From a virus (taxonomy: Duplodnaviria > Heunggongvirae > Uroviricota > Caudoviricetes), in IMG/VR virus record IMGVR_UViG_2693429700_000019: a stretch of DNA of 22,217 bases; one strand, written 5' to 3'. Under the pieces are notes generated by a model, which was not told the DNA's origin, did not search any database, and was given only the letters and a program-made list of their open reading frames with translations. Position numbers and translations under genes: made by a program. Below, piece by piece: positions 1-15,125 of the stretch; position 1 is the stretch's first letter, and each line of letters starts with the position of its first letter.

Positions 1-149
<149 letters not shown>

Positions 150-9787: not shown

Positions 9788-11539
9788 ATGATTCAGGACG
9801 CTTTTGTGCGCCAGCGTGCGCGGCAACTTTACTGGCAGGGTTATCCGCCCGCAGAAATATCACGTCTGATGGGAATAAACCCGAACACGATTTATGCGTG
9901 GAAAAAACGCGACCAGTGGGATGAAACGCCACCCGTGCAGCGTGTCACGCAGTCCATCGATGCGCGCCTCATCCAGCTTACTGAAAAACAGAATAAAACA
10001 GGTGGTGACTTCAAGGAAATAGACCTGCTGACCCGGCAGCTTAAAAAGCTGCATGATGGCCAGCCGGATGTGATGGCCGCAGGAAAGAAAGGCCGGGCGA
10101 AAAAACTCAAAAATCATTTCACGCCGGAACAGATTGCCGCACTGCGGGAAAAAATCATCAGCAGGCTGGAGTGGCATCAGCGGGGCTGGTTTGACTCCCT
10201 GACCCTTTGCAGGGAAGCCGGGATACGTAACAGGATGATCCTGAAATCCCGACAGATTGGGGCGACCTGGTATTTTGCACAGGAAGCACTGCTGATGGCG
10301 CTGCGTGACGATGTGGCACAACCTTACCAGCGTAACCAGATTTTTTTGTCTGCGTCGCGTCGTCAGGCGTTCCAGTTTAAAAGCATTATTCAGAAGGCTG
10401 CGGCTGAAGTTGATGTGGAGCTGAAAGGGGGCGATAAAATCATCCTCTCCAACGGCGCAGAGCTGCATTTTCTTGGTACTTCTGCTGCGACGGCACAGTC
10501 CTACACGGGCAATTTTTATTTTGATGAATTTTTCTGGGTCAGTCGCTTTGCTGAACTGCGCAAGGTGGCTGGCGCTATGGCAACCCTCAGCGGACTGCGG
10601 CGCACCTACTTCTCCACGCCATCCACCGAAACGCACGAGGCATACGCCTACTGGAATGGCGACCGCTGGAACGAGAAAAAGGCCACGCATAAACGCCAGC
10701 GTTTTTCTGTGGACTGGAAAACGCTGCATAACGGGCTTATCTGCCCTGACCGGACGTGGCGGCAAATTGTCACGCTGGAAGATGTGGTTAATCACGGCTG
10801 GAAACACACCGATATTGACGAAATTCGTGATGAAAACACCGAAGACGAGTTCCGCAATCTCTATATGTGTGAGTTTGTCCGCGAAGGGGAATCGGCATTT
10901 AACCTGAATATCCTGATTGGCTGCGGTGTTGACGGATACGACGACTGGAAAGACTGGAAACCTTTTGCTCCCCGCCCGATGGGAAATCGTCCGGTATGGA
11001 TTGGGTATGACGCAAACGGCAGCAGTGGAAACGGCGACAGCGGCGCTGTGTCCGTGGTGGTTCCTCCGGCTGTTCCTGGAGGCCGTTTTCGAACGGTGGA
11101 GACGCGACGCGTTCAGGGGCTGGAGTTTGAAGAACAGGCCAGAGTCATTGAAGAGTTCACGTGTCGCTACAACGTGGAACACATCGGCATTGATGTGACG
11201 GGCGAGAACGGGGAGGCTGTTTATCAGATAGTGAAACGGTTTTTCCCTGCTGCTATTCCGTACACCTTCACGCTGTCATCAAAACGGTCGCTGGTACTGA
11301 AAATGCTGCAAATAATGCGTGCCGGGCGGTGGGAATATGATCGCGCCGAACGCGAGCTGGTCGCAGCCTTTAACGCCGTGCGTAAGGTGAAAACACCGGG
11401 CGGCTTTATCACTTACGAAACGGACCGTGCGAGGGGGATCAGCCACGGCGACCTTGCGTGGGCAACCATGCTTGCTGTCATTAACGAACCGATTGGCGGC
11501 GAAGGGGAAAACGAGCGTTTTACGGTTATGGAGTTCTGA
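9788..11539 (+). CDS. P: Terminase large (ATPase) subunit gpP
   Basis: 583 aa; size and position as in P2 P; 1-nt overlap with the portal start (TGATG at 11537-11541). Confidence 0.85.
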   Translation: MIQDAFVRQRARQLYWQGYPPAEISRLMGINPNTIYAWKKRDQWDETPPVQRVTQSIDARLIQLTEKQNKTGGDFKEIDLLTRQLKKLHDGQPDVMAAGKKGRAKKLKNHFTPEQIAALREKIISRLEWHQRGWFDSLTLCREAGIRNRMILKSRQIGATWYFAQEALLMALRDDVAQPYQRNQIFLSASRRQAFQFKSIIQKAAAEVDVELKGGDKIILSNGAELHFLGTSAATAQSYTGNFYFDEFFWVSRFAELRKVAGAMATLSGLRRTYFSTPSTETHEAYAYWNGDRWNEKKATHKRQRFSVDWKTLHNGLICPDRTWRQIVTLEDVVNHGWKHTDIDEIRDENTEDEFRNLYMCEFVREGESAFNLNILIGCGVDGYDDWKDWKPFAPRPMGNRPVWIGYDANGSSGNGDSGAVSVVVPPAVPGGRFRTVETRRVQGLEFEEQARVIEEFTCRYNVEHIGIDVTGENGEAVYQIVKRFFPAAIPYTFTLSSKRSLVLKMLQIMRAGRWEYDRAERELVAAFNAVRKVKTPGGFITYETDRARGISHGDLAWATMLAVINEPIGGEGENERFTVMEF

Positions 11540-12585
11540 TGAGCAGAAAAAATAAAAAAGTGCGCATGAGTTCACGCATTGATCTCGCTGATGCGCTCAG
11601 GAAAGAATCATCGCTCAGTGCATTCACATTTGATGGTCCTTATCGCCTGACCGGGCATGACCTGCTGGACAATATGTACTGTGCTGATAACGGGCGGTGG
11701 TATGAAACCCCGGTGGACTGGTACGGTCTGGCAAGAGCCGCCCGGCAAACGTCCTGGCATCAGTCTGCGCTTTACTTTAAGCGTAATGTATTGCTCGGGT
11801 GCTACATCCCGCACCCGCTGCTTTCCCGGCAGGATTTCTCGGCGCTGGCGCTGGACTGGTTTGTGTTCGGTAACGCATTCCTTGAGCTTCGGAGCAATAT
11901 GCTCGGCGAACCGCTTAAATTACGGCACGCCCTGGCGAAATACATGCGACGCGGAAGCGATCTTGAATCATGGTGGTATGTGCAGGATGGCAAGGACGCG
12001 TTCCAGTTTCGCCCTGGCAAAGTGTGCCACCTGATGAATCCGGATATTAACCAGGAAATCTACGGCATGCCGGAATATCTTGGCGCATTACTCTCGGCCA
12101 GCCTTTCTCATTCGGCGGACATGTTCAGAAAACTGTATTACGACAACGGATCCCACGCCGGGTGCATCATCTACATCGGTGCAGCGCAGGTAAACCGCGA
12201 AAGCATGGACTCCCTGAAAGAAACGTTACAGGGTGCGCGTGGTGGTGGTGCATTTAAAAACGTGCTCATTCATGCGCCCAACGGGGGCAAAGAAGGGGTG
12301 CAAATTTTGCCGTTCCAGCAGATCACCGCAAAGGATGAGTTCATGAATGTTAAGGCGGCATCCCGTGATGATGTGCTGGCTGCGCACCGCGTTCCGCCGC
12401 AACTGATGGGGGCGATGCCGGGCGAAAAAAGTGCGTTTGGTGATGTGGAGAAGGCCGCGCGGGTTTACGCAATTAACGAGCTGATGCCCGTCATGGAGGC
12501 CATGAAGCACATCAATGACTGGCTTGGCGAAGAGGTGATCCGCTTTAACCCTTACGCACTGTTAGACACCCAGCCCACATCCTGA
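11539..12585 (+). CDS. Q: Portal protein gpQ
   Basis: 348 aa, coupled downstream of P; P2 Q is portal and has the same size/position. Confidence 0.85.
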   Translation: MSRKNKKVRMSSRIDLADALRKESSLSAFTFDGPYRLTGHDLLDNMYCADNGRWYETPVDWYGLARAARQTSWHQSALYFKRNVLLGCYIPHPLLSRQDFSALALDWFVFGNAFLELRSNMLGEPLKLRHALAKYMRRGSDLESWWYVQDGKDAFQFRPGKVCHLMNPDINQEIYGMPEYLGALLSASLSHSADMFRKLYYDNGSHAGCIIYIGAAQVNRESMDSLKETLQGARGGGAFKNVLIHAPNGGKEGVQILPFQQITAKDEFMNVKAASRDDVLAAHRVPPQLMGAMPGEKSAFGDVEKAARVYAINELMPVMEAMKHINDWLGEEVIRFNPYALLDTQPTS

Positions 12586-12635: not shown

Positions 12636-13033
12636 GACTCTCCAGCTCCTGTATCAGTCAGATAATTTCACGATGCTTTCCTGCTGATTGCCATCATCGA
12701 CAGTCAGACTCTTACGCAATCCCACCGCGTTGACTGCATGTTCTCGCCGTCTCAGTGCGATTTTGACGGCCTTACCTTTCACCCCATCAAATCAAAAGCC
12801 CTCACGTCTTTTTCACGCTCAGCGTGAGAAATACAGCCATTCTGTTCTATCTCTGCGACATCGTTCAGGGAATGCTATTTACCCCCTGAAACGCGGGCTG
12901 TTCCCCCGTCACCTGCGCGCAGAAAAAACGCGTTTTTTTGTGCACGTACGGATCCTTGACGGATCCAGCCACCACGCGGGCCGGAAGTACAAAAAGTCGT
13001 TCAAAAAAATTGTGCAAACTTGTGCACTATCGT

Positions 13034-13063
13034 GCAAACAAAAAAAGCGCCTTATCGGCGCTT
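13034..13063 (-). terminator. Rho-independent terminator (minus strand) just downstream of the 89-aa gene
   Basis: Minus-strand RNA forms aagcgcc-gataa-ggcgctt followed by TTTTTTTGTTTG. Confidence 0.7.
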
Positions 13064-13071
13064 CAAAAGTA

Positions 13072-13341
13072 TCAATTGTTGCTGTTTATTAATCGCCAAC
13101 CACGAACATATGCTTCATAGGCATCTCTGTGCCTTACAGTTCCAGCCTGGCTAAACGGAATGTTAGCTAAAACTAAATCATTCTGAGCCATAGCGCGTCC
13201 TTCAAGCGCATCTTTTATGCCTAGCTCAAAAGCACAGGCAGCGCATTTGTGCCGACCTTCTTGTCCTTGATATTCAGGGAGAGACAGAAATGTTGGATTA
13301 TAACGATGAGGGTTCTTGCAAATACCTGTTTTAGCCCGCAC
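13072..13341 (-). CDS. Hypothetical small protein (89 aa) with Cys/His cluster; GTG start
   Basis: ORF with SD-like gaggt upstream of GTG; contains C8, H12, H41-K-C43-A-A-C46; followed by a clean intrinsic terminator. Not recognised by me. Confidence 0.5.
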   Translation of the reverse strand: MRAKTGICKNPHRYNPTFLSLPEYQGQEGRHKCAACAFELGIKDALEGRAMAQNDLVLANIPFSQAGTVRHRDAYEAYVRGWRLINSNN

Positions 13342-13470
13342 TTTATTTACCTCATAGGAAAAATATGCGTGCCTTTACAGAGGTGCGTGTAAGCAATAAA
13401 ATATACGACGCACATTTTGATTTACTTCGGAAGGCACGCATATCAGGTTAAGTGAGTCCGACCGAGTTTT

Positions 13471-13500
13471 ACGCCCCAATAGTTGCTGCTATTGGGGCGT
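13471..13500 (+). other. 12-bp-stem hairpin acgccccaatag-ttgctg-ctattggggcgt with short flanking T runs (weak terminator-like or structural element)
   Basis: Perfect inverted repeat read from sequence; TTTT before and TTT after on plus strand. Confidence 0.4.
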
Positions 13501-13705
13501 TTTGCATGGACAATGCCGCGCAATTATCTTGTCGCTCACAATGCGAACGATCTTACAAAAAGGCACATTACTGTCAAGATAATTGATCGTTTTAATCGAT
13601 AGATAATAGACAATCTATTTGTTTAACAGATCGATTATTGAAGTAAGTGTGCCAAATGGAATGATACTGTCTCTATAAACGTGAGCATTTTTCGCGCAGA
13701 TGCTT

Positions 13706-14017
13706 TTACTCAGGAAATAACGCCCGGATATTCCCAGCCATCTGGCTGGTTATCTTAGCCACTGGTGCAGACTGTGCTTCAAACTTTTTTGAGCTGATTT
13801 GTGTCACAGGTAACATCTCATCATCAGCCCATGCGGCCAGTCGGTAAGCCTCTGCCGGATTCGTCTTCAGAAGTGCCAGCCCGGCCAGAAAAGCCACGCG
13901 TTGGCCGCTTTTGCGGGCTTCTGGTGTAAGGCTGTCCAGCCAGGCGCATGCTTCTCCTTCGTTCTTGACGGCGGCGGGCTTCAGATAGAAACTTATCCGT
14001 CTGGTTGGTGTCGTCAT
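13706..14017 (-). CDS. parR: ParR/StbB-like centromere-binding adaptor (type II partition), 103 aa
   Basis: From Met MTTPTRRISFYLKPAAV..WLDSLTPEARKSGQRVAFLAGLALL.. ; resembles plasmid R1 ParR N-terminal region as I recall it. aaggag SD lies inside the last codons of the upstream ParM gene. Confidence 0.7.
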   Translation of the reverse strand: MTTPTRRISFYLKPAAVKNEGEACAWLDSLTPEARKSGQRVAFLAGLALLKTNPAEAYRLAAWADDEMLPVTQISSKKFEAQSAPVAKITSQMAGNIRALFPE

Positions 14018-14021
14018 TGGT

Positions 14022-14981
14022 TTACTCCTTGTCCATTGCGTACAGCCCATTAACCAGAGCAAACTGTGGCACCCCGTCCGCGATGAAAGTCGCATTAACT
14101 CCGCAGGCTTCGCGGATAGCGGGTGCCACAATCTCCGCCCCGCCACCGACAACCATCACCCGCCCGTAACCCGAAAAAACCGCCAGCGCGCGGATCACGC
14201 GTTGTTTCAGTGTTTCTTCCTTTTCACGAATAACCGCCATCAGGCTGGCGTAATGCGCGTCATTGTGGATGTGCTGGCGCAGCCAGGCTTCATTATGGCG
14301 ATGTTCGATAATGGTATTGGCGATGTGGTGACTGGTGCGCATACCGTTAGTGGCCATCACCGACAGTACGGCATCGGCCATAAGAGAAACGCCTACGTGT
14401 GGATCGCAAAACACCTGGCTGATACCTGCCAGTTGCCCCTGAACCTTTGCCACATCCAGCGTGGTTCCGCCCAAATCCACAATCAGCAGGGATTCAAACG
14501 GACTCATGTCAGCCAGTGCTTTAAAGCCAGCCGGAATGGATTCAGGCATAACCCGTACGTTACGGATAGTGAATGCTTCGCCGTTCTGGTACTCCACCGG
14601 GCGCATGACGTTCGCTTTTTTGCGGTTGATGTTGGCCATGTCCGGCTGTGCGTTTGTGTCGAAATATTCGCTCAGTGGCAGGGTAACAACCACATCCACT
14701 TCCTGTGGCGTGATGTCTGATTTGACCAGCGCGTGATGAATGGCAATGACATTCACATCGCTGTACTGGTATTGCGTGTCGGTCGTCTGGACAAAGCGAT
14801 CGCTGACCGGATCAAAACCATAGCGCACGCCATCAAGCATGTAGTTAGCAGGCTGCGAGCCACCGAACGGCGCAGACCATTCCGACTTGAAGCTGTTCGG
14901 GCTGATGGCGTTGCGGCGTTCGCCGTTCTCAGTCCATGCCAGCTTGATGTTGGTGGAGCCGTCGTCGATGTAAATTTTCAT
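14022..14981 (-). CDS. parM: ParM/StbA-like actin-family segregation ATPase, 319 aa
   Basis: Actin-fold signature motifs IDDGSTNIKL (phosphate 1), LIVDLGGTTLDV (phosphate 2), VMVVGGGAEI (adenosine) and overall colinearity with plasmid R1 StbA/ParM as I recall it. Confidence 0.85.
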   Translation of the reverse strand: MKIYIDDGSTNIKLAWTENGERRNAISPNSFKSEWSAPFGGSQPANYMLDGVRYGFDPVSDRFVQTTDTQYQYSDVNVIAIHHALVKSDITPQEVDVVVTLPLSEYFDTNAQPDMANINRKKANVMRPVEYQNGEAFTIRNVRVMPESIPAGFKALADMSPFESLLIVDLGGTTLDVAKVQGQLAGISQVFCDPHVGVSLMADAVLSVMATNGMRTSHHIANTIIEHRHNEAWLRQHIHNDAHYASLMAVIREKEETLKQRVIRALAVFSGYGRVMVVGGGAEIVAPAIREACGVNATFIADGVPQFALVNGLYAMDKE

Positions 14982-15012
14982 GTCGGTTTTCCTTATGTTG
15001 ATTAATTAATCG

Positions 15013-15125
15013 TTTACGGGATTCTGAAATCCCGTTTTTGCCTGTTTTGTGCGCGCTTCATATATCGCTGCGCGTTTTTTGCTCATTTACGGGATTCGTG
15101 AGTCCCGTTTCTGTCTGTTTTTTGT
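15013..15125. repeat. Two ~38-bp direct repeats, each with an internal hairpin and T-rich tail, spanning the A stop codon and the A-parM intergenic region
   Basis: tttacgggattctgaaatcccgtttttgcctgttttgt (15013-15050) and tttacgggattcgtgagtcccgtttctgtctgttttttgt (15086-15125); internal dyads acgggatt/aatcccgt and acggga/tcccgt. Confidence 0.7.

Follow-up and report, generated by a model that had tools for sequence, protein, structure and literature searches.

A predicted cis-antisense RNA and a covarying messenger RNA leader in the control region of an 89-amino-acid phage cargo gene

The cassette and its genomic setting

The DNA analyzed here is a stretch of 22,217 nucleotides (nt), IMG/VR virus record IMGVR_UViG_2693429700_000019, which we call the window. 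It is a P88-like prophage of Escherichia coli (Xuanwuvirus, P2-type Peduoviridae). Our subject is the spacer at 13342-13705 together with the gene that it precedes, encoding an 89-amino-acid (aa) protein with a zinc motif. The genes for terminase (9788-11539) and portal protein (11539-12585) lie on the plus strand, and are followed by the 89-aa gene (13341-13072, minus strand), the spacer, and then parR (14020-13706), parM and a gene for a gpA-type replication endonuclease, all three on the minus strand.

Comparison by blastn with P88 (L002) and Shae_phiSM (L003) shows that homology stops at 13051/13055 and restarts exactly at the parR stop codon at 13706. In both relatives other genes occupy the interval corresponding to 13052-13705. 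Thus the 89-aa gene and the spacer form one replaceable cassette, the boundaries of which were computed directly. A cos-proximal hotspot between gpA and gpQ of P2-like phages has been described by Rousset et al. 2022 (PMC9122126). The cassette sits between these two genes, with different genes there in relatives, as is the case for accessory-hotspot cargo. The features discussed below are collected in Table 1.

How widespread is the cassette? The spacer is matched in 173 of 5,426 complete E. coli genomes, always in the chromosome, and 166 of the matches cover it in full with an identity of 95% or more. Identical (100%) copies occur in E. coli O157:H7 FRIK944 and in strain 300709. About 75 further genomic and viral loci encode homologues of the 89-aa protein, and about 45 more loci have homologous genes with the same ~250-bp upstream region. 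One such gene, with its upstream region, follows cI in a P22-like phage of Salmonella (L006), and in a Providencia phage (L005) another occupies the interval from Q to the lysis genes, close to a tRNA; both places are classic accessory slots. The ~250 bp located 5′ to the gene align as a single homologous unit across 20 non-redundant gammaproteobacterial cassettes, and the unit is conserved in P2-type, lambdoid/P22-type and Providencia-type phages.

Table 1. Features of the cassette and of related loci. Positions are those of the window, except in the last row, where they are those of the loci named.
Feature	Position	Strand	Remarks
Replaceable cargo cassette, gpA-cos-gpQ hotspot	13052-13705		blastn breakpoints; other cargo in P88 and Shae_phiSM
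89-aa gene, GTG start	13072-13341	-	CHCC zinc motif C8, H12, C33, C36; phrog_3941 (uncharacterised)
Shine-Dalgarno sequence GAGGU	13349-13353	-	7 nt before GTG; homologous sequence inside a covarying hairpin in other lineages
Long-range helix, 3′ arm, mRNA AAGGCACGCAUAU	13363-13375	-	begins in conserved UGUAAAG motif
Antisense promoter -35, TTTACA	13374-13379	+	TTTAC(A/T) in 20/20 cassettes
Inner leader hairpin	13383-13413	-	GUGCGU / ACGCAC arms at 13408-13413 and 13383-13388; covers spacer, -10 and start site of antisense promoter
Antisense promoter -10, TAAAAT	13397-13402	+	17 nt past -35; TAnnnT in 20/20 cassettes
Predicted cis-antisense small RNA, ~97 nt	13408-13505	+	single-stranded 5′ end, stem-loop, terminator hairpin; predicted ends ±3 nt
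Long-range helix, 5′ arm, mRNA AUAUGCGUGCCUU	13431-13443	-	inside segment complementary to the small RNA
GC-rich 12-bp hairpin	13471-13500	+	putative small RNA terminator with UUUU; leader hairpin H2 on mRNA
Sense promoter of 89-aa gene	13550-13577	-	TTGACA 13577-13572, 16 nt, TAAGAT 13555-13550; scan, 19/20 cassettes
Palindrome, 26-nt arms	13579-13638		two GATC and two ATCGAT; 5′ of sense promoter; candidate operator; conserved in P2-type cassettes only
GATC upstream of sense -35	13585-13588		5-7 nt from -35; invariant in 20/20 cassettes
Variable spacer up to parR stop codon	13639-13705		most single-nucleotide polymorphisms and one indel among near-identical copies
Homologues beside restriction or PDC-M18 genes	L084-L087 4001-4255; L088 4001-4261		

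Inverted repeats and reading frames of the spacer

The first-pass annotation of this DNA had drawn attention to a long inverted repeat, an inner dyad and a hairpin within the spacer, and all three are present exactly where they had been placed; the long repeat and the hairpin are returned by a repeat search. The long repeat comprises ATATGCGTGCCTT (13363-13375) and AAGGCACGCATAT (13431-13443), which are 13/13 complementary with arms 55 nt apart, and encloses the dyad GTGCGT (13383-13388) and ACGCAC (13408-13413). The GC-rich hairpin (hereafter the GC hairpin) is formed by ACGCCCCAATAG (13471-13482) and CTATTGGGGCGT (13489-13500), which pair at 12/12 positions around a loop of 6 nt, with TTTT coming next on the plus strand. 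Dinucleotide shuffling of 13342-13705 (500 times) gives perfect inverted repeats with a mean maximum length of 7.4 nt, and none longer than 11, compared with the observed 13 and 12. The AT-rich motifs with Dam sites, previously listed as separate repeats, are likewise real, and make up a single imperfect palindrome (13579-13604 and 13613-13638; 26-nt arms, 73% complementary). GATC occurs at 13549, 13585 and 13629, i.e. three times in 84 bp, compared with 55 times in the entire 22.2-kb window.

The annotation saw no convincing open reading frame (ORF) in the spacer, and we agree. The ORFs of 34-47 aa that can be read there match no known family and are not conserved in L004, a diverged P2-type copy; we have rejected them as genes. 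Two plus-strand ORFs share the ending IDRFNR, a by-product of conserved promoter and GATC DNA.

Two convergent promoters

A consensus scan identified two promoters facing each other across the spacer, each matching the consensus at 10 of 12 positions. The minus-strand promoter, TTGACA-16-TAAGAT (13577-13550), is directed towards the 89-aa gene. The plus-strand promoter, TTTACA-17-TAAAAT (13374-13402), points at the GC hairpin. Both are well preserved in the homologous cassettes. The plus-strand element TTTAC(A/T), exactly 17 nt and TAnnnT is present in 20/20, with seven different -10 hexamers and unrelated spacers, and the minus-strand element TTGnnn-16..18-TAnnnT in 19/20. A GATC overlaps the sense -10, and the predicted sense start site lies at about 13543. 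One proposal made from the window was that the spacer might hold a promoter or operator for the 89-aa gene; this is supported by the conserved promoter, the conserved palindrome upstream of it, and the ~200-nt structured leader to which the promoter would give rise.

The minus-strand promoter is itself bracketed by a perfect 11/11 inverted repeat that had escaped the first-pass annotation, CAATTATCTTG (13521-13531) and CAAGATAATTG (13575-13585). One arm overlaps the sense -35, and the other is located at about +12 to +22. The repeat is not kept in the related diverged P2-type copy L051, and may be lineage-specific or a chance occurrence.

A predicted antisense RNA

The plus-strand promoter is aimed at the GC hairpin, and there is a U-tract on the plus strand only; the predicted product is therefore an RNA of ~97 nt. 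In the leader sense the hairpin is followed by A-rich sequence, so that the mRNA would not terminate there. The predicted small RNA (sRNA) folds with a free energy of -35.6 kcal/mol (z = -4.05 compared with shuffles), and along its whole length is complementary to the upstream half of the 89-aa mRNA leader, including the 5′ arm of the long-range helix described below; this complementarity, like the two promoters, was computed directly. A small RNA ending at the plus-strand hairpin had been one of the suggestions made at the outset, and comparison lends it weight, with the near-consensus promoter geometry and the GC hairpin both present in all 20 non-redundant homologous cassettes. On these grounds the spacer very probably contains a gene for a plus-strand antisense RNA of ~97 nt.

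The tail of the hairpin in the window is UUUUGCAU, and those of the relatives are UUUCCCUU or weaker; a consensus terminator scan did not list the hairpin. A search of Rfam 15 with the window and 18 related loci gave no match at the gathering threshold. Under permissive settings there were only sub-threshold matches confined to the hairpin, to sar and ctRNA_pGA1 at ~22 bits, compared with gathering cut-offs of 43 and 45.

The leader folds into covarying helices

Across the cassettes the leader of the 89-aa mRNA is 171-205 nt in length. On folding each leader, a common layout recurs: a 5′-terminal hairpin and the GC hairpin, then an inner hairpin enclosed by a long-range helix, and a hairpin containing the Shine-Dalgarno (SD) sequence. 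The inner hairpin spans the antisense promoter. The 13-bp inverted repeat of the window is the long-range helix of this minus-strand leader RNA, and not a DNA site. The SD sequence is predicted to be largely paired, within a hairpin in most lineages, with a mean predicted accessibility of 0.23.

The long-range helix is conserved in position and not in sequence. In nearly all lineages the 18 nt from the AAAG of a conserved UGUAAAG motif pair with a segment located 51-66 nt upstream of that motif, and the sequences forming the helix are unrelated between lineages, for example UAUGCGUGCCUU / AAGGCACGCAUA in the window, GAGGUGUCAUCU / AGAUGAACACCUC in L051-55 and GGUGCU.GAAUGUUUU / AAAGCAUUCAGCACU in L071. 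The corresponding duplex-energy z scores are -6.2, -4.5 to -5.9 and -4.4, and most lineages lie 2 to 6 standard deviations below shuffles. The helix is weak in the Providencia/Proteus group (L008, L009, L056). As a whole, the leader of the window folds better than shuffles, with z about -4.

For the lambdoid group RNAalifold predicted 32 pairs, of which 10 exhibit compensatory changes. Applied to a MAFFT alignment of all lineages it predicted no pairs, since indels misalign the helices. A covariance model derived from the lambdoid-group leaders recovers in addition the leaders of P2 type (E 2e-7 to 2e-5) and those of Providencia type (E about 1e-3 to 6e-3). When 25 distinct leaders are aligned by fitting to this model, 86.2% of the cells are paired, compared with 73.7% in shuffles (0/500 as high), and slid controls give 31-50%. 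Twenty-two pairs have changed on both sides (16.1 ± 1.7 in shuffles; 0/500), and the covariation score is 0.340 as against 0.145. In the GC hairpin 10 of the 12 pairs show such double changes. The leader helices and their covariation were computed directly. Folding and covariation across homologues, a course proposed in the first-pass annotation, have revealed a set of covarying leader helices, with which the window itself is connected through the GC hairpin, the shared conserved elements and its position-matched helices. Because the leader of the window carries an insertion of ~24 nt, its helices are backed by that position-matched comparison and not by the table of pairs.

In which strand do these helices function? 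Within the long-range helix 38 cells are G•U, pairing only on the mRNA strand, compared with 10 A•C cells. The GC hairpin has the opposite asymmetry, with 23 A•C cells and 3 G•U, albeit that most of the A•C cells belong to the terminal position, where the bases probably do not pair. We read this as suggesting that the mRNA is where the long-range helix acts, and that the GC hairpin functions at least also in a plus-strand RNA. The folding energies of sense and antisense strands, compared segment by segment, discriminate weakly, and the wobble count is clearer.

The 5′ hairpin and the GC hairpin are separated, in most lineages (including L072, L076, L008 and L051), by a single-stranded segment with a conserved run of purines, AUAAGGGAAAG, AUAGGGAAC or AUAGGAAAAC. 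This run is absent from the window, which has CCAUGCAAAAC at this position. The stretch could be a ribosome standby or SD-like site, or merely the complement of the U-tract of the sRNA.

A model for control of the 89-aa gene

Taken as a whole, the comparison makes it probable that the spacer is an autonomous control region, belonging to a mobile cargo ('moron') cassette with the 89-aa zinc-motif protein as its sole protein, and that the gene is controlled by a cis-antisense switch resembling those of type I toxin-antitoxin loci. The sigma-70 promoter at 13577-13550 would yield a leader of ~200 nt bearing the 5′ hairpin, the GC hairpin (13500-13471) and the long-range helix that ends beside the SD sequence. 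The convergent promoter at 13374-13402, located inside the leader, would drive synthesis of the ~97-nt RNA that stops at the GC hairpin. Pairing of the antisense RNA with the leader would sequester the 5′ arm and unzip the long-range helix, lowering translation or triggering cleavage of the mRNA, or both, and in this manner the protein might be kept low in the lysogen until the balance between the convergent promoters shifts. Transcriptional interference between these promoters is a further possibility. We infer that both RNAs are made, and that the antisense RNA represses.

Some support for this sequence of events comes from structure prediction. In several lineages (L051-55 and the L072 group) the 3′ arm of the long-range helix overlaps the anti-SD sequence, and unzipping of the helix should therefore let the SD hairpin close. 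When the segment complementary to the sRNA is blocked in a partition-function model, the mean unpaired probability falls from 0.23 to 0.12 for the SD sequence, and from 0.38 to 0.16 for the AUG. By analogy with type I toxin-antitoxin loci and with phage antisense RNAs we favour repression over activation, and we make no claim on the direction of control.

Several observations weigh against the antisense switch. For the window, the same partition-function calculation gives an SD value that goes from 0.37 to 0.44, i.e. no closure, with the AUG going from 0.20 to 0.05. In its minimum-free-energy fold the SD sequence pairs with an ACCU within the segment complementary to the sRNA, in which case the sRNA would be an activator. 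The covariance model recognizes only the GC hairpin in the window, the row for which is missing from the formal pair counts, and those counts come from an alignment that was fitted to the model. Homology of the 3′ half of the leader in the window rests on the UGUAAAG motif, the two promoters and the position-matched helices, and not on a match to the model. The -35 and -10 sites of the antisense promoter fall within leader helices, so that selection at the RNA level could explain a part of their conservation. The U-tract is short, UUUU in the window and UUUCCCUU or GUCCU in some relatives, and termination may be partial. Finally, a literature search by accession, sequence, PHROG identifier and topic found nothing on the cassette.

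Alternative modes of control

The DNA upstream of the sense promoter has properties of its own. GATC is ~4-fold enriched in the 260 bp located 5′ to the gene throughout the family, with 74 observed and 18.7 expected, the sequences being related so that the counts are not independent. The sites recur upstream of the sense -35, at the sense -10/+1 and, in many lineages, flanking the antisense promoter. That beside the sense -35 is invariant despite differing surroundings, and all copies share GATCnn(C/T)TTA. On comparing the window with the diverged P2-type copies (L004, L051, L055) the best-conserved DNA is 13472-13651, at ~75% identity; this exceeds the coding sequence, of which only 59 nt can be aligned by blastn, and the 3′ half of the leader cannot be aligned.

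These properties suggest promoters that are sensitive to Dam or SeqA. They could also be taken further, with the palindrome and the invariant GATC as a DNA operator that forms the core of the control. The state of Dam methylation, or the binding of a protein (perhaps the 89-aa protein itself), would then set the activity of the sense promoter, alongside or instead of the RNA. The invariance and enrichment of GATC and the strong conservation of 13472-13651 favour such an operator, as does the occurrence of homologues of the protein in operons of D12-class methyltransferase and type II restriction enzyme, or fused to DndB, HNH, NOV_C and WYL domains. Yet the palindrome is restricted to P2-type cassettes, the lambdoid and Providencia copies sharing only GATCnn(C/T)TTA, and the protein is without a recognisable DNA-binding fold. 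An operator also leaves the covarying helices and the antisense promoter unexplained. We regard it as a rather unlikely core of the regulation, and control of the promoters by Dam or by a protein as a reasonable layer added to the RNA.

A second alternative retains the sense promoter and the structured leader, and dispenses with the antisense RNA. The leader would then be a translational switch responsive to a protein, to temperature or to a ligand, and the plus-strand hexamers would be inactive. The covariation of the helices, and the use of G•U pairs on the mRNA strand by the long-range helix, favour such a leader; the hexamers lie where RNA constraint could conserve them, and several lineages have only a weak U-tract at the putative terminator. 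Against this, the -10 element has kept the classical signature in all 20 cassettes, with T1, A2 and T6 fixed and positions 3-5 free among seven hexamers, at 17 nt from an invariant TTTAC(A/T). An RNA helix needs no such pattern. Moreover the non-Watson-Crick cells of the GC hairpin are mostly A•C on the mRNA, corresponding to G•U on the plus strand, albeit that most of these are at the terminal pair. We therefore consider a leader acting without antisense RNA to be improbable, and prefer the cis-antisense switch.

The 89-aa protein

The four residues of the zinc motif, C8, H12, C33 and C36, are invariant among the homologues, together with an SQAG..RH motif. A single-sequence, word-indexed protein search returned only two near-identical proteins, and an alignment query was needed to reach the family, which comprises >1,300 clusters, all unnamed. 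AlphaFold gives a confident model (predicted local distance difference test, pLDDT, 88.6) that is helical and soluble in appearance, and for which PDB and BFVD contain no structural neighbour. There is no significant match of the protein to Pfam or NCBIfam, nor to any defence model of PADLOC 2.0. A likeness to ribosome modulation factor was faint and far below significance, and we have not used it.

In gut metagenomes homologues form the third gene of an operon encoding a D12 (Dam-class) methyltransferase and a type II restriction enzyme, and a Vibrio homologue is located immediately 5′ to the PDC-M18 A/B candidate defence genes. Fusions of the domain to DndB, WYL, HNH_2 and NOV_C also occur. 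Judged by this company, the protein would belong in conflict systems.

One might go on to propose that the cassette is an RNA-gated sensor or defence module. The zinc protein would be an effector or regulator that recognises nucleic acid, the GATC sites of the convergent promoters would read the state of methylation, and the antisense RNA would silence the gene in a fully methylated, quiescent lysogen, with release upon phage replication or infection. We offer this as speculation, and think it improbable.

The partition genes

The window is an integrative P2-type prophage that carries a plasmid-type ParM/ParR pair (13706-14981), a segregation system of the actin type, between gpA and the hotspot, and the pair is conserved across Xuanwuvirus. 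The product of parR matches Pfam Plasmid_stab_B. A 38-nt repeat with the palindrome ACGGGATTC..GAATCCCGT at its core occurs twice (15010-15047 and 15083-15120; 82% identical), one copy being in the 76 bp that precede parM and the other within the end of the gpA-like gene. The two copies are likely to be an operator or centromere for ParR.

The spacer lies immediately downstream of parR on the same strand and has a strong hairpin, so might simply end the parMR operon as its 3′ untranslated region and terminator. On the minus strand, however, the hairpin is followed by AAAACUCGG, with no U-tract, a terminator scan finds none there, and the spacer is not conserved with parMR; this explanation is very improbable.

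Very improbable too is a centromere-like (parC) site for ParR and ParM, raised in the first-pass annotation and prompted by the position next to parR and the wealth of short AT-rich repeats, since P88, Shae_phiSM and P884B11 keep parMR (~92% identity) without any of the spacer, the spacer accompanies the 89-aa gene into phages lacking parMR (L005, L006), other sequence separates the unit from parR in L004, L051 and L055 (including a clear terminator in L051 and L055), and the iteron-like 38-nt repeats are found only upstream of parM, with their core TTTACGGGATTC at 15013 and 15086 and absent from 13342-13705. R1 parC is located upstream of parM. The spacer resembles R1-type parC in adjoining parMR and having repeats, but fails the tests of conservation and motif. 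A false lead on the partition-site biology of the P88-like phages is thereby removed.

Other sequences near the cassettes

Between the portal gene and the cassette (12940-13040) there is an inverted repeat GGATCCTTGACGGATCC at 12950-12966, and three spaced GTGCA(A/C) motifs (ttgtgcaaacttgtgcactatcgtgcaaac) at about 13010-13039. The region is conserved with P88, and these may be cos- or terminase-related sites. The annotation of Salmonella phage BIS08P22 places a 78-aa 'hypothetical protein' immediately behind cI (L006 2165-2401), where it overlaps the promoter and the first leader hairpins of the cassette. This is probably a spurious ORF called over a regulatory region.

Significance

What had been an anonymous structured spacer becomes a defined unit, comprising a pair of promoters, a single leader fold and one predicted small RNA. 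It would control a widespread and unannotated family of proteins, the genes for which are found next to defence systems and in the accessory hotspots of phages. Should the antisense RNA prove real, it is part of a portable RNA-controlled module common to P2-type, lambdoid/P22-type and Providencia-type phages, and would constitute a new Rfam family. Hotspot cargo may then carry elaborate RNA regulation of its own, which gene-centred screens of defence islands miss.

Comparison with known systems

Type I toxin-antitoxin loci such as tisB/istR-1, zorO/orzO, hok/sok and symE/symR have structured leaders and antisense RNAs that act upstream. The cassette has much in common with these. It is borne by a mobile element, with a small protein gene preceded by a long structured leader in which occlusion of the ribosome-binding site is predicted, and a predicted gene for a small RNA on the opposite strand within the leader, which would pair well upstream of the ribosome-binding site. 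The features that define such loci can be followed in silico: the antisense RNA would have its own promoter and terminator, given the promoter geometry in 20/20 cassettes and the GC hairpin, and covarying helices that include the SD hairpin, with the low SD accessibility noted above, point to an occluded leader. The protein itself is different. Type I toxins are short, usually hydrophobic peptides, typically <60 aa, whereas here an 89-aa zinc-motif protein has a soluble-looking model; SymE and RalR are exceptions to the small hydrophobic toxin. In addition the ~97 nt of the predicted RNA are fully complementary in cis and end short of the SD sequence and the start codon, and there is no relationship by sequence or Rfam. 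The cassette therefore resembles the type I loci in its architecture, and is not a demonstrated member of the class.

In IS10, RNA-IN and RNA-OUT are transcribed from opposed promoters, and pIN is Dam sensitive. Opposed promoters with overlapping transcripts, and GATC at or near the sense promoter, are likewise predicted from the sequence of the cassette. The overlap would be about 135 nt here, compared with 35 nt in IS10, the target is not a transposase, and dependence on Dam is hypothetical.

As a piece of DNA, the cassette can be compared with the cargo of the P2 old/tin hotspot (Rousset et al. 2022, PMC9122126), which is likewise swappable and has the same place beside cos, with replication gene A on one side and portal gene Q on the other. 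It differs in lacking a match in PADLOC 2.0, and in the presence of parMR between gpA and the cassette.

In their mode of action the cis-antisense regulators of phages, P22 sar/ant, P22 sas/sieB-esc, lambda OOP/cII and P1/P7 c4, offer a further parallel. In each a short RNA with its own promoter and terminator tunes an accessory or immunity gene at the level of translation or stability, and this is what we predict for the 89-aa gene. P22 sas, a translation switch for an exclusion gene, is cited as a precedent in PMC12197685. The target gene in the cassette is different, and there is no match to these RNAs beyond the weak, hairpin-confined similarity in Rfam. A further difference is that the unit described here is a portable module, recurring in P2-type, lambdoid and Providencia-type phages. 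We would file the cassette, on the strength of sequence comparison, as a probable cis-antisense-controlled phage accessory gene.

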